This document shows, piece by piece, positions 36,373-50,953 of a stretch of 64,000 nucleotides of DNA; positions within the stretch are counted from its first letter, which is position 1, and every line of letters starts with the position of its first letter. Position numbers and translations under genes: made by a program. The notes beneath the pieces are model-generated. The model did not search any database. It was not told the DNA's origin and worked only from the letters and a program-made list of their open reading frames with translations. The DNA comes from a virus, in IMG/VR virus record IMGVR_UViG_3300007735_000791, positions 23,102-87,101 of that record; one strand, 5' to 3'.

Positions 36373-37445
36373 TGCGTATAGGGATTGTTTCGGGAGACCG
36401 AATACATCCTGCAAAATCACCTGATGGACAAGCGCATTGGGGAGGTGCTGGTTGGGTTCGTCTTGGTCAATATTTGCCCCACTTTGGCAACGACGTAGTT
36501 CTTGGAACTTTAGTTTGGTATTACAAAAAGTTTAAAGTTATTGATGACGCTCGCGAAATGCACGATGTAGACGTCATTATCTTGCAACGTTTGATGCACG
36601 ATGGTTTAACAGAACACATTAAACTGGCTAAACAGGCTGGACAGGTAATAATCAACGACGTAGACGATTGGTACTGGGGTCTTGACCCTAGCAACAATGC
36701 TTGGAAAGCATCTCACCCAAAACACAATAAAAAAGAAAACACTTACTTTTACAGGTCAATCATTTCCGCAAGTTCTCTCGTAACAACTTCTACGCCGTTT
36801 TTATATGAAAAGATGAAAGAATGGAATAAAAACGTATTGTTGTTACCAAACACTGTAGATACTAAAGCGTTCAAAAAACACGACCACACAAAGAACAAGG
36901 ATGTAGTTATTGGTTGGGCTGGGTCTACTGCTCATAGAAGTAAAGACCTACAAGTTCTTAGTGGGGTTTTACCCTCGTTTAATGATACGACCACGCAGGT
37001 TTCGTACTTACACGCTGGTCATCATGATAGTTCTCCACATTTCGCAGATGAAATAGGATTGTCAAAAGAAAAAGTTAGAACTTTGCCTATTTGCGACCCA
37101 GACAAGTACCCAGAAATGTTTCAAATGGACATTGGCATTGCGCCGTTGCGGGACTTTCCGTTTAATCACGCAAAGTCTGAAATAAAACTGTTGGAATACT
37201 CAGCCAGTGGCATTCCGTGGATTGCTTCGGCGTTGCCTTCGTACACGTCTCTTGTCAAAGAGTTTGGTATGGGTCGTACAGCCAAACGTCCTCACGATTG
37301 GATTAGAAACCTAAAACAACTCGTTGGTTCTCGCTTGTTGAGACAAGAGGAAGGAGAACGTCTACACGAGTTGGTCAAGAAACGTGACGTGACCATAGGT
37401 GGCGCAAGGTGGCGCGAGGTTTTGGAGAACCTTCAATCCAAATAA
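36372..37445 (+). CDS. GT-B (GT4-like) glycosyltransferase
   Basis: DVDD, VTTST, PN.VD, IGWAGS..H, DIGIAPL...FN.AKS.IK.LEY.A.G.P.IAS. Confidence 0.88.
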   Translation: MRIGIVSGDRIHPAKSPDGQAHWGGAGWVRLGQYLPHFGNDVVLGTLVWYYKKFKVIDDAREMHDVDVIILQRLMHDGLTEHIKLAKQAGQVIINDVDDWYWGLDPSNNAWKASHPKHNKKENTYFYRSIISASSLVTTSTPFLYEKMKEWNKNVLLLPNTVDTKAFKKHDHTKNKDVVIGWAGSTAHRSKDLQVLSGVLPSFNDTTTQVSYLHAGHHDSSPHFADEIGLSKEKVRTLPICDPDKYPEMFQMDIGIAPLRDFPFNHAKSEIKLLEYSASGIPWIASALPSYTSLVKEFGMGRTAKRPHDWIRNLKQLVGSRLLRQEEGERLHELVKKRDVTIGGARWREVLENLQSK

Positions 37446-37451
37446 TACACT

Positions 37452-37467
37452 TGTGACCAACGTCACT
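37452..37467. promoter_or_regulatory. CRP/GlxR-like site overlapping the first early promoter
   Basis: TGTGA-ccaacg-TCACT versus consensus TGTGA-N6-TCACA. Confidence 0.6.
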
Positions 37468-37496
37468 TGGTGACAGAGGGTTGGTATTGTTACTGT
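37464..37496 (+). promoter_or_regulatory. Early promoter copy 1
   Basis: CACTTGGTGACA-N15-TACTGT with TG extension. Confidence 0.8.
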
Positions 37497-37525
37497 GGAG
37501 TTAGGACACAGAAAGGGGTTACGCC

Positions 37526-39433
37526 ATGTCTAATCTTGCGATACTTACAAAACAGCAAGTTCAAATCAAAGAAGCACTTAAACTTCGTAGTGCGCCTTTA
37601 GGTCTACTGGAGACGGACGTAGATGATTGGATTAAAGCCAACTCCCTAGACGAACTTACTTACAATAGTGCCACTGACTTGTTGGACTATTTGGAAGTCT
37701 TGCCAGTTACTCGTCTTGCCTCGCAAGCACACTTGCCAATGAAGGCAAGTCGTATTCTTGTAAACAAACGTAAAGACAACTGTACCCTTTGCGGAGAGCC
37801 AGTGTTGTCAGGCTTGGGATTACACGTGTTTCATGACGCCAGTTGGCATACGTACCACAACAGCCAAGATTGCCCTGCTGTCACTGAATTGCCTGAATTA
37901 AAATGGGATAGCGCGTCTTTGATGACAGACCTAGAAATGTTTGTCTTTGGCTTAGAGCGTATGCCAAGCGTAGTTTCAATGTCGTCTGAATTGGTAGAAC
38001 TATCAAAAGCACAGGACGCAAACTTATCTTTTGACCTAGAACTTCCACTACTTCCATTTCAACGCGCTGGAGTGAAGTACGCGCTGGAAACGAGGCGTGT
38101 GTTACTCGCAGACAGCATGGGATTGGGCAAAACTTGTCAAGGTATTGCCCTTGCCCTTGATACCAAAATGCGTAATGGTAAAACTATTGTCGTAGTACCT
38201 CCGCACCTCCGCCTCCAATGGATAAAGGAGTGTCGCCGTTTTGCGCCAAAGTTAATGGTGGCGACAGTTACTGGACGTAAACCATATTCTTTGCCAAAAC
38301 ATGACGTACTGGTCATTGGTGACAGCGTAGTCAATGCTTGGGCAAACAAGTTGGCAGGAAAGTTTGACACTTTAATTGTGGACGAAGCGCACAGCATTAA
38401 AAACGAAAAGGCTGGACGCACCAAAGGAGTTCGTTACCTTGCCAATAGTATTCCTGCTAATGGGATTATTGCCCTCATGTCGGGCACTTTGACGCCTAAT
38501 CGTCCAAGTGAGTTGCTCAGTCCATTAAAGATTATTGGACGTTTGGACAACGTGTTTGGCTCGCGTAAAGAGTTCTTGGTCAAGTATTGTGACTATCAGT
38601 TGTTGCCTAATGGTTTTCCAAATCGCAATGGCGCGAGCAACACAACAGAACTCAACACTATCTTGCGCGGTACTTGTATGGTACGCAGGCGCAAAGAGGA
38701 CGTTCTTAAAGACCTTCCGTTGAAACGCCGAGCGCAAATTGACGTAGAACTACAAGAAGCAGAGATGTCTGTGTATCGCACTGCTGAACGTGACTTCTTG
38801 AAGTGGGTCTTGGAAACTTACGGTAAAGACGCACACGAACGCGCTGGTAAGGCTGAAGTCATTACGCGCATGAACAAGTTGCGCGAAATCTTGGGTATCG
38901 CAAAAGTACGCACAGTTGTTGAGCATATTAACTCACTGTTGAGCGAGGGAGAGCAAGTAGTGGTGTTTGGATATCACCGCAAAGTGTTAGACGCTCTCAA
39001 AGAAAAGTTGAACGAGCATGGTGTTGTAATGGTTGCTGGAGGTTCTACGCCTGAAGCCAAGCAACGCTACGTGGAGATGTTTAATAACAAACAAGTAAAA
39101 GTGTTCATTGGACAGTACGAGAGTGCTGGCAGTGGATTAAACCTAACTTCAGCCTCGCACGTGGTACTCGCAGAAATGCCGTACAGTCCTTCAACTGGAC
39201 AACAAGCAGAGGATAGGTGTCACAGGATTGGTCAAGTCAATCCAGTGGTCTCGTGGTGGATTACCGCAGTTGATAACGATAACCACACTATTGACATGAG
39301 GCTATGGGACTTGCTGAACAACAAGGCTGAAGTCACGTCAGCAATCATGGACGGTTGGGCAGAGAACCTTAACGCAGACGCAGGCACTGTGACAGCACAA
39401 CTGTTGAAAGACATGCTCAAGGACTTCAGGTAA
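37526..39433 (+). CDS. Second SNF2-family (HARP/SMARCAL1-like) helicase
   Basis: LLPFQ..GV, LADSMGLGKT, VDEAH, SGT..PNRP, GSGLNLT.A, QAEDRCHRIGQ. Confidence 0.92.
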   Translation: MSNLAILTKQQVQIKEALKLRSAPLGLLETDVDDWIKANSLDELTYNSATDLLDYLEVLPVTRLASQAHLPMKASRILVNKRKDNCTLCGEPVLSGLGLHVFHDASWHTYHNSQDCPAVTELPELKWDSASLMTDLEMFVFGLERMPSVVSMSSELVELSKAQDANLSFDLELPLLPFQRAGVKYALETRRVLLADSMGLGKTCQGIALALDTKMRNGKTIVVVPPHLRLQWIKECRRFAPKLMVATVTGRKPYSLPKHDVLVIGDSVVNAWANKLAGKFDTLIVDEAHSIKNEKAGRTKGVRYLANSIPANGIIALMSGTLTPNRPSELLSPLKIIGRLDNVFGSRKEFLVKYCDYQLLPNGFPNRNGASNTTELNTILRGTCMVRRRKEDVLKDLPLKRRAQIDVELQEAEMSVYRTAERDFLKWVLETYGKDAHERAGKAEVITRMNKLREILGIAKVRTVVEHINSLLSEGEQVVVFGYHRKVLDALKEKLNEHGVVMVAGGSTPEAKQRYVEMFNNKQVKVFIGQYESAGSGLNLTSASHVVLAEMPYSPSTGQQAEDRCHRIGQVNPVVSWWITAVDNDNHTIDMRLWDLLNNKAEVTSAIMDGWAENLNADAGTVTAQLLKDMLKDFR

Positions 39434-39448
39434 GCCTTAAATCTAAGG

Positions 39449-39481
39449 CACTTGATGACGACAATAACATTATGTTAGTGT
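39449..39481 (+). promoter_or_regulatory. Early promoter copy 2
   Basis: CACTTGATGACG-N15-TAGTGT. Confidence 0.8.
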
Positions 39482-39509
39482 TACTAATAACAACCAAAGG
39501 AGAAACAAA

Positions 39510-40517
39510 ATGAGTAAAGAAACTTACGAATGGTTAAACAAGTATTGCCTTATCGGTTATACAGGACAACGTGGTAATGCTTGGCACTACCGCAAAGACG
39601 TACAGAGTGACGAACCTAATCACTACGAAAGCGCAATTCCAGTTGAGGACGTAATCAGGCGTCTGTTTTCGTGGGAGGCTCAAGAAGCACCAGTGTTTGT
39701 CAAATGGAACGACAACTACCGCTTGGAGACTGACCGCAAAGCCATTGTTCGCTCTGACAACGGAGATGTTCTTGGCATGTTCAAGGACAGTTACGCTATT
39801 CACCAATACAAAGAATGGCTCATTGAAAGCGTGTCGCACTTGTTAGATGATGACCTGAACATTGGAAGCGCAGGCATTTTGAAAAACGGTGCTATTAGTT
39901 TTGTCAGTGTTGAAATGCCTGAGACTATCAAAGTTCTTGATGGTTTCTCAGTACGACCTATGTTGCTCGCAACTACAAGCCACAACGGTTCTATCAGCAC
40001 AACCTTCAAACAAGTCAGCACTCGTGTTGAGTGTGACAACTTGTTGGCTCGTGCGCTGAGCGAAAAGACTGAGGAGTTTCGCGCTCGCCACAGCAAGAAC
40101 AGCAACTTCCGTCTCCAAAGCGTACGTGATGCTCTTGGTTTCGTACACCAAATGACAGACGACATAGTTGCTGAGGTAACTAAATATGTCAATATCAAAG
40201 TGTCTGACCGCGAGTGGCAAGCAATCGTTGAAAAACTCATGCCAGTAAACACTGACGCAAATGTAGCAAAGCAAGCAATCTCACGTGTTGAGAACAAACA
40301 AGAGCGCATTAAAGAGTTGTATCGCAATGACCCACGTGTCGCCCCGTTTCAAGGAACAGCACTTGGTGTAATCCAAGCCTTCAACACTTTCAATCAACAC
40401 TTGGTTGGCAAAGATGAGAACCGCGTTGAGCGTAACATGATGAACGCGCTCACAGGAAAAGTCACAGTACAAGACCGTTCGGTCATGGAAGCGATTGACA
40501 AGTTGGTCTTACTGTGA
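39510..40517 (+). CDS. DUF932 family protein
   Basis: AWH, SAG.LKNG, TSHNGS, RVECDN.L, RHSKN. Confidence 0.85.
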   Translation: MSKETYEWLNKYCLIGYTGQRGNAWHYRKDVQSDEPNHYESAIPVEDVIRRLFSWEAQEAPVFVKWNDNYRLETDRKAIVRSDNGDVLGMFKDSYAIHQYKEWLIESVSHLLDDDLNIGSAGILKNGAISFVSVEMPETIKVLDGFSVRPMLLATTSHNGSISTTFKQVSTRVECDNLLARALSEKTEEFRARHSKNSNFRLQSVRDALGFVHQMTDDIVAEVTKYVNIKVSDREWQAIVEKLMPVNTDANVAKQAISRVENKQERIKELYRNDPRVAPFQGTALGVIQAFNTFNQHLVGKDENRVERNMMNALTGKVTVQDRSVMEAIDKLVLL

Positions 40518-40825
40518 CCGATATGAGCCAAGTTACTTGGCAAATTGAAGCGAAGTGCGCTGGGAAACCAACCACTTTGTTTTTTTTTGAAGTAGGTGCT
40601 GGAGGACAACACCAGTATTCCAAAATGTACAAAGAGGCTCGCAGTATCTGTATGGGTTGTGTAGTGGCAAAGAAGTGTTACGACTTTGCTGTAGACCACA
40701 ACGAGGAGTACGGAGTGTGGGGAGGAGTGAACTTTGCTCAACGCCACAAATACGGTAAGAAGTATCGCGCAAGCATGTTAAACAAACAGCACGAGGACTT
40801 CATGAAAGAATACACAAACCAATAA
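40514..40825 (+). CDS. whiB: Second WhiB-family transcription factor
   Basis: W...AKC...FF, C..C.V...C..FA....E.YGVWGG. Confidence 0.88.
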   Translation: MTDMSQVTWQIEAKCAGKPTTLFFFEVGAGGQHQYSKMYKEARSICMGCVVAKKCYDFAVDHNEEYGVWGGVNFAQRHKYGKKYRASMLNKQHEDFMKEYTNQ

Positions 40826-40831
40826 GTTACG

Positions 40832-40864
40832 CATTTGGAGACAAGAGCCTTCAAATGTTAAAGT
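40832..40864 (+). promoter_or_regulatory. Early promoter copy 3
   Basis: CATTTGGAGACA-N15-TAAAGT. Confidence 0.75.
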
Positions 40865-40892
40865 TACATTAAAGACACCATAGGAGGTAGTC

Positions 40893-41141
40893 ATGAGTAA
40901 TTACACACTAGACAAAAACAATGTAGTTTTCGCAGAAAAGTACATGGGAGACGGTAAGTATGCCAAAACATACAGCCGTTATCGCATTATCAAAACGTGG
41001 AAAAAAAGCACCTTACTTACTAAGGTAAACATAGCAACACGCAATGGTTGGATTGTCACACACTGGACAACACATGCTGGCTTTTTTCCTTCGGCACTTC
41101 TCGTCAAAACGTACCTATGCGACACAGATGAGGCAATGTGA
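40893..41141 (+). CDS. Early hypothetical protein
   Basis: AGGAGG RBS. Confidence 0.6.
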   Translation: MSNYTLDKNNVVFAEKYMGDGKYAKTYSRYRIIKTWKKSTLLTKVNIATRNGWIVTHWTTHAGFFPSALLVKTYLCDTDEAM

Positions 41142-41389
41142 TTGAGAACAGCGAGTATTTTGCTAACTTAAAACGTTGGGACGTTTTGGACTGGTTTAAT
41201 ACGTTGCTAATTCGTGTGTCTATGACATACAACGAAAAAGAACGTTTGATGTTGTTTTCAGAGATTGGAAGTCTTACTGACTTCTATCCTGAGTTTCGTC
41301 CTTACGCTCGCAAGGCAGGAGTGCCTCGCATTTTGCCCGACAATTATCCAAGCACTTTAGGAGATACTTATGAAATTATCACGCAATAA
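41138..41389 (+). CDS. Early hypothetical protein
   Basis: GTGA coupling, GAGG RBS. Confidence 0.55.
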   Translation: MIENSEYFANLKRWDVLDWFNTLLIRVSMTYNEKERLMLFSEIGSLTDFYPEFRPYARKAGVPRILPDNYPSTLGDTYEIITQ

Positions 41390-41702
41390 ACCAACTCCAA
41401 AAAACCACTTTCGTTGGACTGTCAAATGGGTCAATGCTTACACTGAGGACACCGTTAAAACAGCAGAGGAAGCAGTTGTGGAGGCTCTAGGAGACTTAGA
41501 GGACGCAATTAAAAACGTTGGCTTTGGCACTAATCAGTTTGTTGTTACAGACAACGACACTGGTGACGTGATAGTTATTGGTTCTGACGTTGCGTTGGAC
41601 AGGGTTAATCAAATTAACACCATTATTAACGTAGACCAAAGCGTAACTTATGCGCCAACTACAACTGTCTACGTTCAAGATAGTAAAAGGAAAAAGAAAT
41701 GA
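41370..41702 (+). CDS. Early hypothetical protein
   Basis: AGGAG RBS. Confidence 0.6.
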   Translation: MKLSRNKPTPKNHFRWTVKWVNAYTEDTVKTAEEAVVEALGDLEDAIKNVGFGTNQFVVTDNDTGDVIVIGSDVALDRVNQINTIINVDQSVTYAPTTTVYVQDSKRKKK

Positions 41703-41977
41703 TTACTCGTTATGTACTACACCTGACGTGTAGTAAAGATAATACAGACGGTACTCCACGAAGGCTACAAGTTGTGTACTTGTCGGCAGGTGGAAGTAAT
41801 GTCATTGCTGACAACAAACAACCAACGCACAAAATTACAACTGTGTTGGAAGGGAAGTCGTGTCCATTGGAAGCACCAAAGGACGCACATGCTTTCATTG
41901 TCACTCCAACTTCGTACAACGAGTGGTTGGAGAAAATAGAAAGTCAATATCCACGAAACAAATGGAACAACATATAA
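41699..41977 (+). CDS. Early hypothetical protein
   Basis: ATGA coupling; D.DGTPRR motif. Confidence 0.6.
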   Translation: MITRYVLHLTCSKDNTDGTPRRLQVVYLSAGGSNVIADNKQPTHKITTVLEGKSCPLEAPKDAHAFIVTPTSYNEWLEKIESQYPRNKWNNI

Positions 41978-41991
41978 CAAAGGAGAATAAC

Positions 41992-42636
41992 ATGCCAAAC
42001 CATTGCTCAAACAACCTAACAATCAAAGGTAGCGAAACAGAAGTAAAACGTTTTCGTGAAGCCATTGTGAAACCAATAGAAGGACGCAATCACAGTGAGT
42101 TTGCGATACTACACAATTTGTATCCATGCCCTCTTGAATTGGAGAACATACCAACCATTATTGCCATAGATGATGATGAGAAAGCGCAAGAACAACAGAA
42201 ACTGTATGAAGCAAACATACAGAAGTTTGGTTCTCCGCACGCTTACGATTGGAAGTGTGAAAAGTGGGGAACTAAGTGGGGAGACTATGACGGTTTCATT
42301 ACTTGTGATGTAGAGCCACTAGACAATGGCATGGCTTATATGACGTTATCTTTTTCGTCAGCATGGTCTCCGCCAACCGCAGGGATTGTTCAAGTTTCAA
42401 CATTGTTTCCAACTTTGGAGTTTGTGCTTACCTTTGAGGAAGGTGGCATGGCTTTTATTGGTGGTGTCTCAATTAAGAATGGCGAGACAATAGCAGAACG
42501 TTGGGCAGAGTATCCTCCGTTTCAATCACGAGGTGACATGACTGATGACCAATATGACGATATGTACGAACAACACAATGACAGTCTTTTGAGGCTCATG
42601 GACGAAATTACTGAGGAATTGGCGGTTAGTTTCTAA
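41992..42636 (+). CDS. YubB/Api92-like (DUF1281) ferredoxin-fold protein
   Basis: MPNHC.N.L.I.G, YDW...WGTKW, F.SAWSPP, FP.L.F.L.FEE.G..F.G. Confidence 0.8.
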   Translation: MPNHCSNNLTIKGSETEVKRFREAIVKPIEGRNHSEFAILHNLYPCPLELENIPTIIAIDDDEKAQEQQKLYEANIQKFGSPHAYDWKCEKWGTKWGDYDGFITCDVEPLDNGMAYMTLSFSSAWSPPTAGIVQVSTLFPTLEFVLTFEEGGMAFIGGVSIKNGETIAERWAEYPPFQSRGDMTDDQYDDMYEQHNDSLLRLMDEITEELAVSF

Positions 42637-43223
42637 TGTCAAACACAACAATTACAAAACAAGAATTAAATGACCTTCGTAAATGGTCACGAGGATACGT
42701 TCAAGCCTTGTTGAGCCACGACAAGATATACGAGGGATATGACGAGTTTTATAGTTATGGAACTTACTGGGACGTCAATATACACGCCGTTGGTGAGCCA
42801 AACACAATTCACGTAGTTGCCTATGCTCAAATAATGCGCGAGGACGGTTTCCTAGAAACAAACACGTCTTGTTGGATTGAGGTACAACGCTACAACTTTG
42901 CTGGAGAAGCATTAACAATGAATGAACACAAAACTTCAAACGTTGATATGGTGCTGGTAGATGTACCGCGATTGTACGCATGGAGTGGACGCCAAACATA
43001 TCCAACAACAATGACTTTGTTCTTGGACATTATTGGTTGGAATGATGAATATCTTGGTGGCAAATCAACAGAGCCAATGCCCGACTTGGGATACTTGGAG
43101 GCTGACTTACTGGGGTTGGCTCTTGTGGAATACTCAAACAATACAGAAAAAGTTTACGAGTACCTATCTAACAACTTGTTGAAAGACCAACTGACAATAC
43201 CATTTGATGACAAGAACTCATAA
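42636..43223 (+). CDS. Early hypothetical protein
   Basis: TAATG coupling; LFLDIIG...LGYLE.D.L..AL.EY motif. Confidence 0.6.
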   Translation: MSNTTITKQELNDLRKWSRGYVQALLSHDKIYEGYDEFYSYGTYWDVNIHAVGEPNTIHVVAYAQIMREDGFLETNTSCWIEVQRYNFAGEALTMNEHKTSNVDMVLVDVPRLYAWSGRQTYPTTMTLFLDIIGWNDEYLGGKSTEPMPDLGYLEADLLGLALVEYSNNTEKVYEYLSNNLLKDQLTIPFDDKNS

Positions 43224-43233: not shown

Positions 43234-43239
43234 AAAAAC

Positions 43240-43912: not shown

Positions 43913-43913
43913 C

Positions 43914-44282
43914 ATGGGCGCGGACTTCATGTTTTCAATTAACGAAATGAAACTTACCAAAGAGGAGGCGTACGCAAAGGCTAGGAAGTACGCCGACAAT
44001 TCTTTGGAAGCGACTGTGACAATGCTGGTAGAACAGTGTGGTTGTTATGAGTTTGACAACATGTATCTTGAGGGATACGACATTACTTCAGACCAACTTT
44101 ATGAGTTCTTGACCGAGTGTATAAACACCGTTTACAATTACCAATCACTTCGTGATTGTAGTTATTTTACTATTGACTATACACGAACGTTTGCCATAAC
44201 TGGAGGAATGTCTTGGGGAGATGAGCCAAGTAATTCTTACAAGAGTTTCAACGTGTGTGAAGTTTTGGGATTAACTGATTAA
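43914..44282 (+). CDS. Early hypothetical protein
   Basis: MGADF...TGGMSWGD.P motif. Confidence 0.65.
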   Translation: MGADFMFSINEMKLTKEEAYAKARKYADNSLEATVTMLVEQCGCYEFDNMYLEGYDITSDQLYEFLTECINTVYNYQSLRDCSYFTIDYTRTFAITGGMSWGDEPSNSYKSFNVCEVLGLTD

Positions 44283-44283
44283 G

Positions 44284-44316
44284 CACTTGGTGACAAGGAC
44301 AGCCAAGTGCTAAAGT
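44284..44316 (+). promoter_or_regulatory. Early promoter copy 5
   Basis: CACTTGGTGACA-N15-TAAAGT; hairpin TATAGAC/GTCTATA at +1. Confidence 0.85.
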
Positions 44317-44361
44317 TTTAATATAGACAATCGTCTATACACAATAAACAAGGAGGACAAC

Positions 44362-44823
44362 ATGGGATTAGACCAATACTTGTACGCAGAGAAATACTAT
44401 TCTCCGTACAACAAAACTGACAAGCGTTACGAGGACTTCAACAAAATAGTTGAACTTGTTGAAGCAACTGACATCATTGAGCCTGACTATCCAAGCGCAC
44501 TTGTTCGCGTCAAAGTAGCACAGTGGCGCAAAGCCAATCAAATCCACAAATGGTTTGTGGACGCTTGTCAAGGAGGAGAGGACGATTGTAGGGACGCTTA
44601 TGTGGAATTAAGTAGTCTCCAATCTCTAAAAAAAGTGTGTAAACAAGTTGTGGAAAATCCTTCAATCGCTGAGGACTATTTGCCTACACAAAGTGGTTTT
44701 TTCTTTGGAGGCGAGGAATATGACGAATACTACTTGGAACAATTACAAGACACAATTAGTGTCATTGAAAAACTTGAGGCAATGGGAAACGAGTGGTCAT
44801 TTGTATACTCGTCCTCGTGGTGA
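44362..44823 (+). CDS. Conserved phage hypothetical protein
   Basis: MGLD.YL...WRKANQIH.WF...LPT.SGFFFG..YDEYY...Y.SSW; AGGAGG RBS. Confidence 0.8.
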   Translation: MGLDQYLYAEKYYSPYNKTDKRYEDFNKIVELVEATDIIEPDYPSALVRVKVAQWRKANQIHKWFVDACQGGEDDCRDAYVELSSLQSLKKVCKQVVENPSIAEDYLPTQSGFFFGGEEYDEYYLEQLQDTISVIEKLEAMGNEWSFVYSSSW

Positions 44824-44824
44824 C

Positions 44825-45016
44825 ATGAAAACAAAAACATACAACGTTACGTTTGTTGGAGAGTACATGTGTTTGACAACTACCATTGAGGCTACAAACG
44901 AGGACACAGCAATTCAAGAAGCAATGGCACATATTAACGAACAATATGGTTGGGACTTGGAGGAAATAGAAATCATTGACACTACGTGTGAACGTTTGAA
45001 AGGGGTATATTTGTGA
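44825..45016 (+). CDS. Early hypothetical protein
   Basis: Y.VTF...IEA.NED.AI.EA pattern. Confidence 0.55.
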   Translation: MKTKTYNVTFVGEYMCLTTTIEATNEDTAIQEAMAHINEQYGWDLEEIEIIDTTCERLKGVYL

Positions 45017-45303
45017 CAACCATTTGTGACGCCGTAGAAGTATGGGAGAACTGGTACAAACCACTTACCAACAAGTTCATATCAGATGACGAAACAAAGT
45101 TGTTTGAAACGTATGGTGAGGAATACGACTTTGTATCTAACTCACCTGAGAAAAAAGTGTGGACATGGGTGGACGGTTCTGACGGTACGTACATTGTTTC
45201 AGGCTTACACTTTGTCAATCGCATTGGGTATTTTGTGACTGAGGAGGAGTGGCAATCACCTATGGTAGTGCCATATGAGAAATATGAAACGGTAGGTGTA
45301 TAA
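45013..45303 (+). CDS. Conserved phage hypothetical protein
   Basis: FETYGEE..FV...VWTWVDG...I.SG.HFVNRIGYFVT. Confidence 0.7.
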   Translation: MTTICDAVEVWENWYKPLTNKFISDDETKLFETYGEEYDFVSNSPEKKVWTWVDGSDGTYIVSGLHFVNRIGYFVTEEEWQSPMVVPYEKYETVGV

Positions 45304-45519
45304 ATGAAAGTATCAGATTACCTAAACGCAGGCGTAGAGGTAGAGTTACTTTACGAGTTGTGCGAAGTTGCTAGAAATACTTTTGGTGAAACCGCAGTAG
45401 AAGCACTTGTTGGTGCGTTGTCTACAGTAGTAACACTAAAACAATTACAAACATTGGTTACAAACTGGAAAGAATTAGAACTTAAAAAACAATCGGAGTA
45501 CATAACAAATCATGATTAA
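45304..45519 (+). CDS. Early hypothetical protein
   Basis: Tiles in the operon. Confidence 0.55.
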   Translation: MKVSDYLNAGVEVELLYELCEVARNTFGETAVEALVGALSTVVTLKQLQTLVTNWKELELKKQSEYITNHD

Positions 45520-45676
45520 GTTTGACAAAATAGTATATTCGGTATGGGTAGGTGGAGGAGAAGTAAACGACCACTACATTACCGACCACAGGACGGCGCA
45601 AGAACTTGCTGACGAGTATTTGTCAGAAGGATATGATGACGTAGAGATAACGTTTCAGTGGCAACCACATGACTGA
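45512..45676 (+). CDS. 54-aa early protein (not in the ORF track)
   Basis: GGAG RBS; YSVWVGGGEVND.Y...A..LA.EY..EGYDDV. Confidence 0.6.
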   Translation: MIKFDKIVYSVWVGGGEVNDHYITDHRTAQELADEYLSEGYDDVEITFQWQPHD

Positions 45677-45821
45677 CGACCACAGCATATGCCCTTCGTG
45701 TGGCGACCACATGACAAACAACCACTCCAATTACGTACCTACGTGGAGTGACGACCACGACAATATCGTGTGTTGGTGGTGTGCTAAACACGACCACGAC
45801 CACTTGGTGACAAAGAACTAG
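45669..45821 (+). CDS. 50-aa His/Cys-rich protein (not in the ORF track)
   Basis: MTDDHSICPSCGDH...VCWWCAKHDHDH. Confidence 0.5.
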   Translation: MTDDHSICPSCGDHMTNNHSNYVPTWSDDHDNIVCWWCAKHDHDHLVTKN

Positions 45822-45833
45822 GAGTGCTACAGT
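45801..45833 (+). promoter_or_regulatory. Early promoter copy 6
   Basis: CACTTGGTGACA-N15-TACAGT. Confidence 0.85.
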
Positions 45834-45851
45834 TTCGTTAGGAGGTAATTT

Positions 45852-46103
45852 ATGACAACAAATACAACCACAAAAAACTACAAAACGTTCATTACAGAAG
45901 TTCTTGACGTCACAAGTAACTGTGAAGGCTCAGGATTAGTTTCTGAGATTAACCTGATTGCCACTGAGTACGAGGAATACCTATTTACTACTCCATTGCC
46001 AAACACTGTCGCAACGTGGATAAATGAACTATTCATGCTCATTGACAACTGCGAAGGCTCAGAACTACAGCGCGAGTTAATCTCGCTTAAATCGCCAATC
46101 TAA
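45852..46103 (+). CDS. Early protein with internal duplication
   Basis: AGGAGG RBS; NCEGS.L..E occurs twice. Confidence 0.6.
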   Translation: MTTNTTTKNYKTFITEVLDVTSNCEGSGLVSEINLIATEYEEYLFTTPLPNTVATWINELFMLIDNCEGSELQRELISLKSPI

Positions 46104-46114
46104 CGGGAGGCACA

Positions 46115-46351
46115 GTGATATACATTGACAAGAACAATGGCTCATGGGGCAGTTGTACCTTTAAGTCCATTGCCTTCATTGACGACAGTGCGTGGACGAT
46201 TGACGACTTCAACGAGATGTCAAACTGGAACGACACAATGATTGTTGAGTATGCCGAGTTATATGACCAATATGGATACGTGCCTAATTACGTACCTCCT
46301 TCTCCTACTGAGTGGGCAACTTCAAACTATCAGACGAGTATCCTCCTTTGA
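46115..46351 (+). CDS. Early hypothetical protein
   Basis: GGAGG RBS before GTG. Confidence 0.6.
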   Translation: MIYIDKNNGSWGSCTFKSIAFIDDSAWTIDDFNEMSNWNDTMIVEYAELYDQYGYVPNYVPPSPTEWATSNYQTSILL

Positions 46352-46361
46352 CAAGTCGCGC

Positions 46362-46394
46362 TATTTGGTGACAGTCACAGCCTTGTGTTACAGT
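46362..46394 (+). promoter_or_regulatory. Early promoter copy 7
   Basis: TATTTGGTGACA-N15-TACAGT. Confidence 0.8.
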
Positions 46395-46460
46395 GTGTTT
46401 AAGGCAAGGGTACGCAATGATACCCGTGTAAGACTACCGTAGTCGGTAGCACCCTTGCCG

Positions 46461-46497
46461 ACACACAACACAACACAACACAACGAAGGACAACACA
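46461..46497 (+). repeat. (CAACA)n tract in a 5' leader
   Basis: acacacaacacaacacaacacaacgaaggacaacaca immediately before the ATG at 46498. Confidence 0.8.
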
Positions 46498-47220
46498 ATG
46501 GACACAATCACTAATGGCAAAGAGATTACTCGCACGAAGGTAGCGTATACCTTTGACGAGTTATCGGACAAGGCGAAGGACGTAGTAATTGAGCGTGAAC
46601 GCGAGATTGCGTACGAGACAGTACACTTGTTTGGCGACATTGAGTGCGACATGAAAGAGCATGTCATCAAAGAACTCACAGGCGAGGAATTGTCGTACTG
46701 GGGTAAACAATTCACTGACCTCAAAATTGAATACTCCTTGTCTCATTGTCAGGGAGACGGAGTTGCGTTCTACGGTAATCTCTACCGCAATGAAGCACCT
46801 CAACTCAACTGGGCAGACCCCATTGAGCGCGTGGTACTCAAACGCAATTATTGGGGCAATCACTACACTCACAAGAACTGCTTTAACTTAGAGTTCTACA
46901 ACGAGGACGGAGACATGATTGGCACTGACGGAGGCTCGCGCAATGACATTGTGCTGTACCTGACTGAGGCTATGAAGCCCACACTCTTTGGCACGTCAGA
47001 TAAAGACAATATGACAGCCGACCAACTGGCAGTTCACCAATCCATGACCGATATCATGAACGACTTAAAGAACTTGTGCGTGACAGCCGAGCGCGTGGGT
47101 TATGCGACCATTGACAACCTCACAAGTAAAGAGACGATACTAGAGCGTATTCAGTTTGACGACATGCCACGCAAATATGACGTGGACGGACAACTACTAG
47201 AACCTCTTTGGTGGGAGTGA
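46498..47220 (+). CDS. Acidic early protein of a mobile-element-associated family
   Basis: YTFDELSD.AK, YSLS.CQGDGV.F, GY......S.E.I.E pattern. Confidence 0.65.
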   Translation: MDTITNGKEITRTKVAYTFDELSDKAKDVVIEREREIAYETVHLFGDIECDMKEHVIKELTGEELSYWGKQFTDLKIEYSLSHCQGDGVAFYGNLYRNEAPQLNWADPIERVVLKRNYWGNHYTHKNCFNLEFYNEDGDMIGTDGGSRNDIVLYLTEAMKPTLFGTSDKDNMTADQLAVHQSMTDIMNDLKNLCVTAERVGYATIDNLTSKETILERIQFDDMPRKYDVDGQLLEPLWWE

Positions 47221-47232
47221 CGTAGGTCATAA

Positions 47233-47265
47233 CACTTGGTGACAACAATACTACTGTAGTAGTGT
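47233..47265 (+). promoter_or_regulatory. Early promoter copy 8 (CRP-like AGTGA-N6-TCATA at 47216-47231 upstream)
   Basis: CACTTGGTGACA-N15-TAGTGT. Confidence 0.85.
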
Positions 47266-47289
47266 GTTATTAGAAGGAGATAAACAACA

Positions 47290-47514
47290 ATGACTAAGAA
47301 GGACTACGAAGCAGTCGCAAAGGTAATGCGACTTCAAATAAGTGGGGCACACAAGGTGGACATTACAGACTGGTCTAATCTTTGTCACGACCTCGCACGC
47401 AAGTTCTACGCAGACAATGAGAGGTTCTCGCACGAGAGGTTCTACACTGCTTGTGGCTTTGACATAGCGTTTCCGACCACAGACTGGCGCAACACGTTGA
47501 GGTTATCAGCATGA
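47290..47514 (+). CDS. Conserved small phage protein
   Basis: MTKKDYE..A...LA..F..DN.RF...RF..ACG. Confidence 0.7.
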   Translation: MTKKDYEAVAKVMRLQISGAHKVDITDWSNLCHDLARKFYADNERFSHERFYTACGFDIAFPTTDWRNTLRLSA

Positions 47515-47687
47515 CGACCACTACTCCCGTTGAGTATCAGTACGTGTGCTACGCGACAATCTGCTTACAGTTTGACAGCGAGCGCGAGTTATCTGACGCA
47601 GAAGTTGAGGCGCGAGCCAAAGAACTATTCTTTAAGGCGTCACCACGCCGTGACGAAGTTGCGATTGAGTGGGAGTTTGACGCATGA
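47511..47687 (+). CDS. 58-aa early protein (not in the ORF track)
   Basis: ATGA-coupled at both ends; MTTTTPVEYQYVCY... Confidence 0.6.
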   Translation: MTTTTPVEYQYVCYATICLQFDSERELSDAEVEARAKELFFKASPRRDEVAIEWEFDA

Positions 47688-48208
47688 ACTCCGCAGAAGT
47701 CGCCAAAGTTCTGACCGCCAATCCACAGACCGTCTTTATGCTCAAATTAGGAGGCAGGCGCAATCGCAGTGACTGTGGACGTATCCTGAAAGTACACGAG
47801 GAGACTGTGAGCATGGACAGGTATGGATACCGTCTTGGCAGGACACGCCGAGTGACAACTTACACTGTAGAGATTATCTCGCAGGTAAGTAACTTTGAAC
47901 TCACAGAGCCGACCTACCAAATTAAGACACACTACTCCAAAGTTCGTCCGAGCGAAGTGCTGTATGCCCTGACATGGGACAAGACACTAGAGCAGTTGTG
48001 CGAGGAGAGGACGAAGGCAGAGCGCGAGTATAAAGAGCGCATGGACACTAACGAGGCACGCAAACAAGCACTGGTCACGCAGTTGGTACTTGTCGCGGAC
48101 GTACAGGCGCATGAGTTACAGTCACTCAAACTACCCACACTGGAGGCACTTGTGAGGGCACTTGGTGACAACGATACTACTACGCTAGTCTCTAATCAGG
48201 AGGGATAA
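47684..48208 (+). CDS. Early hypothetical protein
   Basis: ATGA coupling. Confidence 0.6.
   Translation: MNSAEVAKVLTANPQTVFMLKLGGRRNRSDCGRILKVHEETVSMDRYGYRLGRTRRVTTYTVEIISQVSNFELTEPTYQIKTHYSKVRPSEVLYALTWDKTLEQLCEERTKAEREYKERMDTNEARKQALVTQLVLVADVQAHELQSLKLPTLEALVRALGDNDTTTLVSNQEG
48159..48191 (+). promoter_or_regulatory. Early promoter copy 9 (inside the end of an ORF)
   Basis: CACTTGGTGACA-N15-TAGTCT. Confidence 0.8.
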
Positions 48209-48214
48209 ACAACA

Positions 48215-48625
48215 ATGACAACAACAACGACAGGCAAAACACTTAGGTCTCACGCTTGCGACATCATCAGTGGCGCATACGAGACTGGCGTATATTACTG
48301 GGCAGTGGGTCTAGGTGACTACACTTGGTCAGACGAGGACGAGACAGCGAGCGTCACTATTTTTGAGATGGGCGACAGCACAGACTACGAGGAGGCGTAT
48401 AAAGGCAAGCCACTTCACCTCAACGAGACAATCGTTGCCGACTGGCTCAAACTTATGGGCACAACGTCAGAGGGCGTACAGACCCTCAGGGCACAACTCA
48501 ATGACAGGCTGGTCAAAGATATCATCATGCTCAACGTGGCGAACGACTACGACCTAGACTGGGACGCCTTTGACTATGACGCCGTAGTTCAGTTAATCAC
48601 ACTGGGAGAAGTGCGCTATGGCTGA
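48215..48625 (+). CDS. Conserved acidic phage protein
   Basis: AGGAGG RBS; G..YWA...DA..D.VVQ....GEV.YG. Confidence 0.7.
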   Translation: MTTTTTGKTLRSHACDIISGAYETGVYYWAVGLGDYTWSDEDETASVTIFEMGDSTDYEEAYKGKPLHLNETIVADWLKLMGTTSEGVQTLRAQLNDRLVKDIIMLNVANDYDLDWDAFDYDAVVQLITLGEVRYG

Positions 48626-48959
48626 GACACTGGAGAAGTTCGTGCGCGAGTGGGGCTTCTGCCCTCACGTGGACGAAGGCTTGTGCGAGACATGTCAGAG
48701 CGACCCGTCTCAAAGGTCATACAGCACAGGAGACATGCTTACACTCAATCATGAGAGGCAGGTCGCAATCTTTGGCTGGTGTCATTGTGAGGCGCATGAA
48801 GGCTCGCCTGAGGACATGCCCTATAGCGATTGCCCACGAGTAAAGTGCGCCGATTGTGGCGAAACACTGGACTTGGACGAGTACGGAGAAGGCGGACATA
48901 TATACCCTGACGGTAGCGTATTGTGCGCGACATGCGAGGCAATACGATATGTTGAGTGA
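48618..48959 (+). CDS. Cys-rich zinc-binding protein
   Basis: Several CxxC pairs. Confidence 0.6.
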   Translation: MAETLEKFVREWGFCPHVDEGLCETCQSDPSQRSYSTGDMLTLNHERQVAIFGWCHCEAHEGSPEDMPYSDCPRVKCADCGETLDLDEYGEGGHIYPDGSVLCATCEAIRYVE

Positions 48960-48976
48960 CGGACGACACACGCAAA

Positions 48977-49010
48977 CACTTGGTGACAATACTACTGTCA
49001 ATGCTAACGT
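48977..49010 (+). promoter_or_regulatory. Early promoter copy 10
   Basis: CACTTGGTGACA-N16-TAACGT. Confidence 0.8.
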
Positions 49011-49029
49011 GGGGTATATGGAGGACAAG

Positions 49030-49338
49030 ATGACAACGACACAATCATTACCAACACTTACGTTATTTGAGTGGGGCAAGAAGTATATTACTGACTTACC
49101 GCCCTCACAATTCCGCAAGCGCGACTTAGTTTACGGTACTAAGCCTCGCTTATTGTGGAAGGACGAGAACGAGGCAGAGGCACAACGCAACGCACTTGTG
49201 CTGGAAGGTCTCAGGTACGTGACGGAGGCAGGCTTGGCAGAGTACCTGACTGACCTTTACGGGACGCCAATCACAGACCATTACCGCCTCAAAGCAGTTC
49301 AACAACTCATGGAGAAGTGGCAAGAGAGGTTGCCCTAG
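49030..49338 (+). CDS. Early hypothetical protein
   Basis: GGAGGA RBS before ATG 49030. Confidence 0.6.
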   Translation: MTTTQSLPTLTLFEWGKKYITDLPPSQFRKRDLVYGTKPRLLWKDENEAEAQRNALVLEGLRYVTEAGLAEYLTDLYGTPITDHYRLKAVQQLMEKWQERLP

Positions 49339-49793
49339 TGACCACTGACACCTTTGGCGGACGCTACGCAGGCAGGTCGCCTGAGCAGAGTGGCAAGTTC
49401 TACGGACAGGCGCATGCTTGGCTGGACTTCATCACTGAGACAGTAGACGAGGACATGGCGAGGCAATGGCTGGAGGCATACGACCACTCGGCAGAGCATT
49501 GGGAGTACGACATGCCCAACCCACTGGACGTATGGGAGGAGTTCTATATGCCGACCACACGACCACAGGAGACCACACACGACCACACGCACGACCACAC
49601 GCATACACGCGACCACACACGCGCAGACGACCACACACGCACGCGTACAGGCGCGTACGCATGGGCACGCGCATACGCGAGCGCGTACAGGGACGCAACT
49701 GCCAAACTCATGAGGGAAGTCATTGAGAAGGGGTATATAGAAGGACAAGATACACGGGATAACAATAGTACGACAGGTGAGTATGGCGCGTAG
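49338..49793 (+). CDS. Early protein with internal GACCAC-repeat insertion
   Basis: GAGG RBS, GTG start; His/Thr/Asp-rich insert. Confidence 0.55.
   Translation: MTTDTFGGRYAGRSPEQSGKFYGQAHAWLDFITETVDEDMARQWLEAYDHSAEHWEYDMPNPLDVWEEFYMPTTRPQETTHDHTHDHTHTRDHTRADDHTRTRTGAYAWARAYASAYRDATAKLMREVIEKGYIEGQDTRDNNSTTGEYGA
49552..49640 (+). repeat. Seven GACCAC copies in an A/C-rich tract
   Basis: cgaccacac gaccacagga gaccacacac gaccacacgc acgaccacac ... gaccacacac ... gaccacac. Confidence 0.8.
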
Positions 49794-49894
49794 CCTACCC
49801 TTGTGCGCGAGTGAAGGTGTCGCGCAAACGCATAGCCCTAATATAGGCGTATGCGAACGTACGTACGCATGCGTGGATACGCGCAGTACACACG

Positions 49895-49903
49895 TTATCC
49901 ACA
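49895..49903 (+). promoter_or_regulatory. Perfect DnaA box
   Basis: TTATCCACA in a ~420-bp intergenic region; degenerate inverted copy CGTGGATAC at 49872-49880. Confidence 0.5.
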
Positions 49904-50009
49904 AGAACGCACTGCTGGGGCTGAAGGTATCCCTTCTATCTGTCAGCCTCAGCAGTCGCCTATCGCGAAGTGACCTATCAGTAGTACCTGCCTCAACGCC
50001 TGATACCGC

Positions 50010-50123
50010 AGTGACGTGGGTCACAGTGTGTGACGGACGTCACTTGATGACGGGAGGGGTCGTTTGGTAGGCTGGGGTTACGTACCCATGCGTTACTGGG
50101 CAAATGGTGTGACGGAGGTCACA
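50010..50123. promoter_or_regulatory. Three CRP/GlxR-like sites
   Basis: AGTGA-cgtggg-TCACA (50010), TGTGA-cggacg-TCACT (50029), TGTGA-cggagg-TCACA (50108). Confidence 0.7.
50041..50073 (+). promoter_or_regulatory. Early promoter copy 11
   Basis: CACTTGATGACG-N15-TAGGCT. Confidence 0.75.
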
Positions 50124-50130
50124 GGCGTAG

Positions 50131-50163
50131 GACTTGGTGACGAGGTGGGTCGTGTGTGAGACT
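50131..50163 (+). promoter_or_regulatory. Early promoter copy 12 (weak -10)
   Basis: GACTTGGTGACG-N15-GAGACT. Confidence 0.55.
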
Positions 50164-50214
50164 GGTGACAGAGGCAAGCGAAGGGCAAGCCTCACGACAT
50201 GAAGGGACAAGGAC

Positions 50215-50553
50215 ATGACAGTAGAGTTCACAGCACGCTTTGACGACAGTCTCAGCGACTACGTGAAGGAGATAGTGAGCGAGGAAGTAGGTGACATTGA
50301 CGACAAGGTCAATGACAAGGTCACTGAAGTCTTTGACGGATACGCCGACCCAACCGAGTTTTTTGACATGGGGTCGTACGTCACTGAGGACGACGCTCTG
50401 ACAGACAGCGCAGTGGAGGAACTGATTGCCGAGAGCGACCTCGCCAAGACAGTGACCACGCTGGCGACCACGCTACAGGCAATCACGGACGCACTGGTGG
50501 CTGGTGGCTTCGTGCCGACTGGCTGGCAGGCAATTCCAAAGGAGGTGGCGTAA
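50215..50553 (+). CDS. Highly acidic small protein (DNA-mimic candidate)
   Basis: About 26 D/E versus 6 K/R in 112 aa (hand count). Confidence 0.6.
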   Translation: MTVEFTARFDDSLSDYVKEIVSEEVGDIDDKVNDKVTEVFDGYADPTEFFDMGSYVTEDDALTDSAVEELIAESDLAKTVTTLATTLQAITDALVAGGFVPTGWQAIPKEVA

Positions 50554-50720
50554 TGCCGAGCCTCGCCAAAGAGAACGCTCGTGTGCTCATGTACGCCGAC
50601 CTAGCGGGACTGGCGGACTGGCTGGAGGACGCTGGGTACGACATGGACGAGAACGCGCAGGCGTGGCTGGAGAGGTGTCTTACGTGGCTGGAGGCGGAGG
50701 TGGAGAAGTTGCGCCGATAG
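50553..50720 (+). CDS. 55-aa acidic protein (not in the ORF track)
   Basis: AGGAGG RBS, TAATG coupling; MPSLAKENARVLMYADL... Confidence 0.6.
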   Translation: MPSLAKENARVLMYADLAGLADWLEDAGYDMDENAQAWLERCLTWLEAEVEKLRR

Positions 50721-50763
50721 GTCGTCCCCGACTGGGAGGCAGGGAGGATAGTAAACTCTCTGC

Positions 50764-50796
50764 CTCTTGGTGACGAGCATGGCGACATGCTAGTAT
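50764..50796 (+). promoter_or_regulatory. Early promoter copy 13
   Basis: CTCTTGGTGACG-N15-TAGTAT. Confidence 0.7.
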
Positions 50797-50838
50797 GAGG
50801 GTAGGGGGGAGGGTAGGCAAGCCCCCCCCACCCTTAAA

Positions 50839-50852
50839 CGAACGTGCGTTCG
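50839..50852. promoter_or_regulatory. Gram-positive LexA (SOS) box
   Basis: CGAAC-gtgc-GTTCG. Confidence 0.55.
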
Positions 50853-50953
50853 GGGTTAGGGGGTAGGGAACATGCCTCGCTTACACCCATTACCTTCAAT
50901 AGCCCTATTCCAGGTTACAGCGTAAACGGGCAAATAGCCCTATACTATTCTAA

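Follow-up and report, generated by a model that had tools for sequence, protein, structure and literature searches.

A 14-kb block purged of restriction-type motifs adjoins a predicted genome end in an uncultured tailed phage

The tailed phage represented by IMG/VR virus record IMGVR_UViG_3300007735_000791 carries a block of about 14.3 kb (36,600 to 50,863) that has been purged of restriction-type motifs and whose right limit is a genome end predicted from a terminal motif. The window analyzed here is 64,000 nucleotides long and covers bases 23,102 to 87,101 of this single 87,101-bp virus contig (G0, or G000 among the records compared); block coordinates are window positions. We propose that G0 is a linear tailed actinophage genome with fixed ends and that the block forms its right-terminal 14.3 kb, an arm that would enter the cell first, be transcribed by the host, and be purged in place by host restriction acting before the phage neutralizes it. 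We give this reading as a whole, the terminal position included, a probability of roughly 0.6. An earlier note on this DNA, made from the letters alone, had singled out the region as a probable first-injected or terminal-repeat host-takeover module.

RESULTS

Complete loss of short motifs from a single block

Reading by eye, the earlier note reported that TGCA, GANTC, GAAGA, CCWGG, GGNCC, and GCNGC are missing between 36,700 and 50,900. Counting bears this out: the raw counts in that interval are all 0, against whole-window totals of 209, 121, 210 (GAAGA/TCTTC), 57, 47, and 100, respectively. Within 36,600 to 50,863, TGCA, GAAGA, GANTC, CCWGG, GGNCC/GGCC, GCNGC, GCTCC, and CATCG all have zero occurrences, and the asymmetric purged 5-mers are absent in both orientations. 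The site-free spans extend from 36,595 to 51,769 for TGCA, 35,794 to 51,335 for GAAGA, 35,857 to 51,190 for GAATC, 35,915 to 50,910 for CCAGG, and 36,196 to 52,175 for GCAGC; the lengths for TGCA (15,174 bp) and GAAGA (15,541 bp) are about 50 times the mean spacing.

A (k-2)-order Markov model built from the block itself predicts 57.9 copies of TGCA, 33.3 of GGCC, 29.7 of GAAGA, 21.4 of GGACC, 19.9 of GCTCC, 17.5 of GACTC, 16.1 of GCAGC, 14.4 of CCAGG, and 11.7 of GAATC, none of which is observed. With this correction the purge stands and is restricted to the block. Observed and Markov-expected counts outside it agree closely for GAAGA (292/262), GAATC (122/120), GCAGC (111/118), GCTCC (71/72), and CATCG (69/70); TGCA (322/425) and GGACC (65/84) are mildly low there, and GGCC (36/116) is the only strongly depleted purged word. 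A sliding scan of the complete 87,101-bp genome in 146 windows of 14.3 kb, restricted to absent 4- and 5-mers with an expectation of at least 8, returned 11 such words at the block (median of all windows, 0; 95th percentile, 1), and no other 14.3-kb window of the 87-kb genome shows comparable word loss.

The loss is also visible in the way that proteins are encoded. In 300 rounds of synonymous-codon shuffling of 27 block genes, which preserved proteins and codon usage, the purged motifs reached means of 6.3 to 34.9 copies, and for 12 motifs the minimum was never 0; the control palindromes GTAC, CATG, ACGT, GCGC, CGCG, and CTAG stand at or above the shuffled expectation in the block. Codon-by-codon counts upheld the systematic rerouting of codon pairs that had been noticed by eye. 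Glutamate before a GAx codon is written GAA 0 and GAG 39 times in the block versus 62 and 6 times in 20 outside genes, and Asp-Ser uses an AGY serine codon in 14 of 14 cases versus 11 of 35 in outside genes. Any codon choice for Met-His or Met-Gln creates TGCA (ATG-CA), and these dipeptides occur 0 times in the block versus 12 outside.

The fully absent words are short or interrupted palindromes and asymmetric 5-mers, the kinds of site that classical type II/IIS enzymes recognize; MboII, HinfI, and AluI would be examples of enzymes for purged or avoided words. The block-limited purge is best read as restriction avoidance.

The same block lacks other words in related phages

A search of IMG/VR with the DUF932 protein of the block as the query yielded 13 related loci, and five whole records were compared: G001 (92,155 bp, complete, with a 127-bp end overlap), G002 (44 kb), G003 (105 kb), G004 (45 kb), and G005 (37 kb). 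Expectations in this comparison were taken from word density outside the block. Four of the five (G001, G002, G004, and G005) have a purge in the DUF932-bearing block, with differing word sets. TGCA is gone from G0 (0 observed, 63 expected) and G001 (0/55) and retained in G002 (51/66). CATG and GTAC are lost from the G004 block (0/24 and 1/23) versus enriched in that of G0 (79/48 and 76/35), and TTCAA, ACTGG, and CACTG have no occurrence in G001 and G005 versus 53, 48, and 49 in G0. CATCG is absent from G0 and G002 versus 56 copies, 22 expected, in G001. Further losses comprise TTCAA (0, with 65 expected), AATT (1, with 69 expected), and ATAT (0) in G001; GAAGA, GAATC, and GCAGC (0 each) and CCGC (1, with 33 expected) in G002, which retains GACTC; and AATT, ATAT, TATA, TTCAA, and GAAGA (0 each) in G005.

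The position of the block is steadier than its word set. Its length is 13.6 to 14.6 kb in the three records with both edges, and as in G0, the left edge lies beside the glycosyltransferase gene in G001, G002, and G005, with a rightward shift of about 700 bp in G001. Hypervariability among relatives affects the right part of the block and the sequence beyond it, and the purge spans this right part together with conserved genes (SNF2 and DUF932; 73 to 82% nucleotide identity to relatives). The DUF932 protein is 85 to 95% identical between phages whose purged sets differ. Since different words are missing from the same position and occur at chance frequency elsewhere, which compositional import would not predict, the pattern indicates that differing restriction systems of the hosts have acted on the block in place.

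A second class of words is avoided throughout the genome. Not only the block but the entire 87 kb of G0 is free of GATC, CCGG, and AGCT, and TCGA occurs once, against Markov expectations outside the block of 153, 61, 204, and 130, respectively. G001 and G005 lack all four and also CGCG, and G004 lacks GATC and AGCT only. Two local gaps lie elsewhere in the window: a 3.1-kb stretch of baseplate and tail genes (6360 to 9439) is free of CATG, which is 12.8 times the mean spacing, and a 6.5-kb stretch (56233 to 62769) is free of CGTTA/TAACG (13.4 times).

A conserved boundary element predicts a physical genome end

The closest cultured relatives of G0 are Streptomyces phages of the BRock group (BRock, LuckySocke, and GiJojo; Borockvirus and relatives), with capsid identities of 58.2 to 58.8% in 6 records, of 27 with a match, and terminase identities of 44.6 to 46.1% in 6 of 10 matches. 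The right edge of the block carries a motif with homology to the real genome ends of these phages. This once-per-genome motif (50,822 to 50,837, plus strand; a C-run, ACC, CTTAA) is a candidate terminase recognition site. Its core, 5 to 8 C followed by ACC and YTTAA, occurs once each in G0, G001, and G002, and every copy marks the right edge of the block on the terminase strand. It recurs, oriented likewise with respect to the terminase gene, in the short direct repeats that terminate LuckySocke (344 bp), GiJojo (197 bp), and BRock (221 bp), and all three genomes end exactly 26 nt after the TTAA. The motif was examined across the whole BRock genome, where it is found in the terminal-repeat copies only, and in the end regions of LuckySocke and GiJojo.

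Because of this homology, the physical right end of G0 is predicted at about 50,863, 47 nt before the first purged word reappears, which lends support to the suggestion that a genome end lies near 50.9 kb. A 10- to 12-kb arm of small genes adjoins the motif-bearing end in both BRock and LuckySocke. Since the repeats of the three cultured relatives measure only 197 to 344 bp, the terminal repeat of G0 is probably short and one of 14 kb unlikely.

The motif is part of a conserved noncoding boundary element of about 130 bp (50,801 to 50,950, plus strand) with G-run/C-run stems, a CGAACGTGCGTTCG hairpin, and two copies of ATAGCCCTAT (50,899 and 50,934). The element is kept in 16 aligned sequences of several lineages, with unrelated, hypervariable DNA on both flanks. 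A search for it in IMG/VR matched only two records already among those compared, and a 16-mer scan of metagenomes gave at least 118 stretches, 13 of them with the real boundary element among the matches listed. Four of these 13 contigs end inside the element, at different bases; breaks in the assembly graph explain this equally well, and given the differing end bases we did not count them as evidence of a physical end.

The two ATAGCCCTAT 10-mers lie 35 bp apart just past the predicted end (50899 to 50908 and 50934 to 50943). A one-mismatch copy is present about 1.1 kb upstream (49832 to 49841), with only two other one-mismatch matches in the genome, and G001 has a gene inserted between its duplicated copies. 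ATAGCCCTAT was considered as a general middle promoter and rejected, as it is confined to the boundary plus the related copy about 1.1 kb upstream.

Edges and internal structure of the block

The edges were mapped with 16 purged words pooled, which give one site per 41 bp outside the block. On the left, the last pooled sites fall at 36,595 and 36,599. TGCA occurs at 36,410, 36,559, 36,583, and 36,595 and not thereafter, all within a glycosyltransferase gene (36,372 to 37,445, plus strand; Pfam Glyco_trans_1_4, 1.7e-6; phrog_7162, 1.7e-44), so that the left edge at 36,600 is 228 bp inside this gene. On the right, the first pooled site is CCAGG at 50,910, and the sites that the earlier note had named beyond the block are present (CCAGG at 50,910, GAATC at 51,190, CCAGG at 51,194, and GAAGA at 51,335). 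The right boundary is sharp, as that note described, with the loss ending before 50,910. The left one is slightly graded and lies within a gene: CCAGA, CATCC, and GATGC sites continue as far as 37,110, and a lone GATGC stands at 40,128.

The right edge falls in a noncoding stretch. The rise in GC content toward 50.9 kb and the abrupt drop after it were likewise confirmed, at 0.558 in 50 to 51 kb and 0.369 in 51 to 52 kb; mean GC is 0.46 in the block versus 0.40 outside. An inner zone near the end (45,400 to 50,863, without strand) shows an additional, graded loss of A/T-rich words as GC rises from 0.47 to 0.56. AAAA has no occurrence over 2 kb near the predicted end (48,361 to 50,359), and a graded loss of A/T-rich words with a GC rise toward the predicted end is also seen in G001 and G002. 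The graded loss of A-tracts could be due to the extreme end being exposed for longer, or to counterselection of sequence that AT-binding silencers recognize.

Site-free runs measured leftward from the predicted end in G0, G001, and G002 have a bimodal length distribution, with restriction-like words running for 13.7 to 17 kb and A/T-rich words for 0.5 to 6.8 kb. The long class comprises 14 of 48 words in G0, 21 of 51 in G001, and 6 of 38 in G002, and the interval from 7 to 13 kb is nearly empty, with one word in G0, three that contain AATT in G001, and one (7.7 kb) in G002. The long class argues for all-or-none exposure of the whole arm, and the bimodality fits one discrete step better than a gradient and hints at entry in two steps.

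When checked for a feature that could stop injection, the inner (left) edge was found to be crossed by a polar cluster of five plus-strand ACGACCAC words (35,728 to 36,994), laid out in the same way in G001, G002, and G005. Further clusters of this word, at 45567 to 45803 and 49480 to 49634, lie in the right third of the block. ACGACCAC(A) is strongly strand polarized (21 copies on the plus strand versus 3 on the minus strand) and falls in different reading frames. No sequence is common to the left and right block edges.

The boundary is not an assembly chimera, as independent contigs span both edges (on the left L010, 98.9% identical over 13.9 kb; on the right L099, 97.5 to 99.7%), and 20 of the 24 runs listed, from 10 studies of viral, freshwater, or lake metagenomes, contain half or more of the words found in 10 kb spanning the right edge. 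L099 lacks three short cassettes (48966 to 49354, 52065 to 52543, and 53637 to 54613), and gene-cassette turnover therefore occurs on both sides of the boundary.

Promoters cluster in the block and face the predicted end

A promoter pattern derived from an intergenic repeat family, TTGnnGAC[A/G], 13 to 16 nt, and TAnnnT, was used in a custom search of the 87-kb genome. It has 14 matches on the plus strand and 0 on the minus strand. Twelve of the 14 fall within the block, where every one immediately precedes a gene and most have a TG before the -10 element; on the plus strand between 37,467 and 50,796, they start at 37467, 39452, 40835, 43204, 44287, 45804, 46365, 47236, 48162, 48980, 50044, and 50767, and all are directed toward the predicted end. 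The clustered promoters that the earlier note described are thus present, although their number by this pattern is 12 instead of 13. The block promoters presumably resemble actinobacterial housekeeping promoters with an extended -10 element.

In the relatives, a TTGAC...TGnTAnnnT pattern has 10 of 12 plus-strand matches within the block in G001, 10 of 10 in G002, and 4 of 4 in G005. The pattern of G0 itself is scattered in these phages (two plus two matches in G001, one in G002) and found in none of their blocks, which use TTGAC. This distribution is consistent with an early-type gene set that would be read by the host polymerase. A generic terminator scan gave no excess (16 versus 14.7).

Block genes

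Small acidic open reading frames (ORFs) were expected from the letters alone, and about 20 of the 33 ORFs of the block indeed have isoelectric points (pI) of 4.1 to 4.8. Thirty block ORFs were scanned against Pfam and 30 against PHROGs. Apart from weak, subthreshold Pfam matches, the only named families are glycosyltransferase, helicases (SNF2, Helicase_C, DEAD, and ResIII), DUF932, WhiB, and DUF1281_C. The glycosyltransferase gene is followed on the plus strand by an SNF2-family helicase gene (37,526 to 39,433; SNF2-rel_dom, 2.5e-26; Helicase_C, 4.2e-15; phrog_62, 1.2e-99), a second copy of which lies in the replication module (15,258 to 16,802). The predicted DUF932 gene is there, at 39,510 to 40,517 on the plus strand (PF06067, 4.9e-33), and marks the block in relatives as a conserved gene; our literature search retrieved no paper with DUF932 in its title or abstract. 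It is followed by a gene for a WhiB-like transcription factor, an actinobacterial marker (40,514 to 40,825, plus strand; PF02467, 1.5e-16). The gene described as YubB-like is present at 41,860 to 42,636 (plus strand) and encodes an acidic protein (pI 4.8), but its match is to the DUF1281_C (Api92-like) domain (PF18406, 3.3e-8).

The next-to-last ORF before the end (50,215 to 50,553, plus strand) specifies a strongly acidic, conserved 112-amino-acid protein with 26 aspartate plus glutamate and 6 lysine plus arginine residues. It has 46 homologous clusters at 55 to 100% identity. A profile search of PDB gave one chance-level match only (E 0.0059, glucose-6-phosphate isomerase), and an Atlas search gave nothing above 0.83, with TM below 0.5.

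Outside the block, a 494-amino-acid protein (32178 to 33662) matches a PHROG family annotated as queuine tRNA-ribosyltransferase (DpdA-like; phrog_887, 1.7e-30) and has no Pfam match. Pfam recognized only a WhiB and a lysozyme domain among ten genes around it, and no 7-deazaguanine synthesis genes. Methyltransferases of the two families searched for were found in none of five records.

Genome and host group

The G0 contig has a CheckV completeness of 92%, and its ends are classed as linear by IMG/VR. It encodes a large terminase, portal, major capsid protein, tape measure, and baseplate wedge, as befits a tailed phage, together with DnaB, primase, SNF2 helicase, family-A polymerase, UvsX-like recombinase, and Cas4-type exonuclease for replication and recombination, and nearly all its genes are on the plus strand. 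The contig ends (genome bases 1 to 100 and 87002 to 87101) are repetitive, Thr-rich coding sequence without mutual overlap, and the assembly therefore probably broke in the repeat of a fiber-like gene and not at a real end.

Two WhiB-type regulators are encoded in the window (40,514 to 40,825 and 35,067 to 35,465). WhiB is confined to Actinobacteria and serves as an actinophage marker, in the statements of PMC10202952 devoted to these proteins, and on this basis we regard G0 as a phage of Actinobacteria. A search of GTDB genomes for a host with the WhiB protein gave a single weak and irrelevant match, and a megablast search with the block among 50,697 phage records gave none.

DISCUSSION

We suggest the following course of infection. 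In tailed phages, the end that is packaged last leaves the capsid first; the motif-bearing right end of G0 would thus be the first to enter the cell. About 14 kb would become accessible in a discrete first step, within reach of host restriction endonucleases, and any recognition site in this arm would be lethal. Every site of the restriction systems present among the hosts of a given phage lineage would accordingly be removed by synonymous codon and codon-pair choice, even by dipeptide avoidance. Unmodified host RNA polymerase would express the arm genes first, and their products may neutralize most host restriction or permit entry of the remaining genome. The other 73 kb would become accessible only after these products act, so that the same motifs could drift there at chance frequency, and the second class of targets (GATC, CCGG, AGCT, and TCGA), which would escape neutralization, would be avoided genome-wide. 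Entry order, a pause after the arm, and anti-restriction activity of its products are what we infer. In a more specific form, freshwater actinophages unrelated to T5 would deliver their DNA in two steps, with a fixed first portion, the rightmost 14 kb or so, being read from a dozen host-type promoters and then licensing entry of the remaining 85%; we advance this form only tentatively and hold it to be possible, with the odds somewhat against it.

Restriction acting on first-entering DNA has precedents. According to the passages of PMC10644984 concerned, T5-like phages (T5 and BF23) are restricted only via sites in first-step-transfer DNA, and Murciaviruses, in the corresponding parts of PMC12455610, only if the first-injected region contains the motif. 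G0 resembles T5 and BF23 in having a segment of about 8 to 16% of the genome, predicted in G0 to be terminal, transcribed by the host polymerase and rich in small genes of unknown function, in which sites are counterselected, here known from a sequence signature, the complete block-limited purge. Some T5 pre-early genes are also read toward the entering end (record annotation). The G0 lineage is nonetheless unrelated to T5, being an actinophage with baseplate-type tail genes and a capsid and terminase like those of the BRock group. Its repeat is probably short versus the 10-kb repeat of T5, and a dozen 4- to 5-base words are fully purged versus three absent words in T5 first-step DNA. No family named A1, A2, or dmp, after the T5 pre-early genes, was matched among the block ORFs scanned against Pfam and PHROGs. 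T5 (bases 1 to 64,000) was tried as a positive control for the absent-word measure and discarded, the three words of its first-step DNA equaling the windows at 12 to 15 kb.

Like the Murciaviruses and other T7-like phages, G0 would have restriction selection concentrated on a first-injected, hypervariable early region, as far as the account in PMC12455610 goes; there it concerns one type I motif and a few kilobases, whereas here it concerns many type II-like words, 14 kb, and outward transcription. Two T7-type early features were not found: ArdA is absent from five of five records, and the 12 promoters face the predicted end. Conjugative-plasmid leading regions offer another likeness, as first-entering DNA with early "establishment" genes, in which DUF932 and YubB-like families are common. 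G0 differs in being a virion-packaged phage genome without transfer genes, and the resemblance amounts to two domain families only. The SPO1 host-takeover module, a possible analogue proposed in the earlier note, lies in a 13-kb terminal redundancy with clustered strong early promoters and small host-shutoff genes; in the G0 block, promoters are clustered and small genes are present.

The BRock group is akin to G0 in capsid (58 to 59%) and terminase (45 to 46%) and in the terminal motif lying 26 nt short of the end, and BRock and LuckySocke have their 10- to 12-kb small-gene arm at the same end. That arm is, however, on the opposite strand (inward), and the comparison with BRock detected no proteins in common with the block: the block's only homologues in BRock are its SNF2 helicase (to the replication helicase) and WhiB (to gp68), both outside the BRock arm. 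The motif-end arm of BRock (L028, 1 to 16000) lacks 12 to 14 hexamers versus 0 to 2 in other windows. We rejected restriction avoidance as the reason, as most of these hexamers contain GAAG (a codon ending in G, then AAG); low lysine content is the likely cause. LuckySocke (L164, 5871 to 6542) has an annotated ArdA-like antirestriction protein just inside its terminal small-gene arm.

Several observations weigh against a first-entering arm that protects itself. T7 early-region entry is driven by inward transcription; the genes of the G0 block are read toward the predicted end, so that host transcription could not pull the DNA in as in T7, and the arm of the Streptomyces relatives reads inward. 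With block proteins lacking a homologue in the arm of BRock, synteny of the arms comes down to position and gene size. The inner edge falls within a gene, its gradation extends over about 500 bp, and in G001 it is shifted by the 700 bp mentioned. The more distant G003 (105 kb, GC 0.67) shows no purge of 4- and 5-mers, and the first-step region of T5 scores only three absent words, like other T5 windows. None of the block ORFs scanned against Pfam and PHROGs belongs to a recognizable anti-restriction family, 19 of the 20 small ones scanned against PHROGs are without a match, and ArdA was not found in any of the five records that include G0 (G000 to G002, G004, and G005). A generic sigma-70 scan also revealed no promoter excess (20 versus 26.0 ± 5.4 in shuffles).

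Other explanations account for parts of the pattern. Base modification or a bound protein could shield the bulk of the virion DNA but not the arm. Chance-frequency motifs outside the block are expected of shielded DNA, and the phage encodes a glycosyltransferase and the DpdA-like protein (phrog_887, 1.7e-30). This protein, however, has no Pfam match and no recognized 7-deazaguanine synthesis genes beside it, methyltransferases of the two searched families are missing from all five records, and the four 4-mers avoided genome-wide argue for cleavable bulk DNA. We also know of no modification pathway that spares one contiguous 14 kb, and we regard such differential protection as unlikely. The whole 14.3-kb block could instead be a long terminal repeat of the T5 type, duplicated at both ends, collapsed in assembly, and equivalent to first-step-transfer DNA. 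Sharp edges, the left one inside a gene, would be natural for a repeat boundary, the 10.2-kb repeat of T5 is its first-step DNA with a noncoding stop region at the inner border (record annotation), and the circular assembly of G001 with its 127-bp end overlap is also expected from a collapsed repeat. Against this, the relatives with terminases 45 to 46% identical have repeats of only 197 to 344 bp, the terminal motif is at one block edge only, and the two edges share no sequence, which makes a long repeat distinctly unlikely.

A cause other than restriction would be the phage's own nuclease or DNA-binding factor, or signals that disturb early transcription or silencing, e.g., through an AT-binding nucleoid protein. 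In G0, G001, and G002 alike, A/T-rich words are gradually lost and GC climbs over the last 4 to 6 kb; these trends do not resemble discrete recognition sites and may have such a cause. The fully absent words, however, are those of classical type II/IIS enzymes, and their sets differ among phages 85 to 95% identical in the DUF932 protein, which fits changing host repertoires and not a fixed phage factor; we consider this explanation very unlikely. Mosaic origin, by which the block was imported from phages that avoid these words genome-wide and has retained their composition, would explain its higher GC (0.46 versus 0.40) and agrees with the hypervariability of its right part and the DNA that follows. 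Yet the purge begins within a conserved gene and covers the conserved SNF2 and DUF932 genes (73 to 82% nucleotide identity), its limits are the same in records with differing word sets, and it ceases no more than 50 nt from the predicted end though the DNA beyond is equally variable. Import of the block is therefore highly improbable.

Exposure of a first-entering arm to host restriction is a principle known by experiment in T5-like and T7-like phages; the signature described here is far stronger and sharper and appears in an unrelated group. New are the complete purge of a dozen 4- to 5-base words, the word sets that change between close relatives, the discrete 14-kb limit, and the anchoring of the block to a genome end via a terminal motif common to cultured phages; no description of a multimotif, block-limited purge was found in our literature search. 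The cultured Streptomyces relatives BRock, LuckySocke, and GiJojo are one setting in which entry order could be tested, and about 30 small, mostly acidic, unannotated early proteins are candidates for new anti-restriction functions.

If the two-step form is correct, the purged word set would directly reveal, strain by strain, the restriction systems that uncultured hosts possess, and the comparison of block-only with genome-wide avoided words would separate the host enzymes that the phage can disarm from the others. If our proposal as a whole holds, sequence alone would map, in uncultured phages, the first-entering end, the amount of DNA that enters before self-protection, and the restriction specificities of the host.

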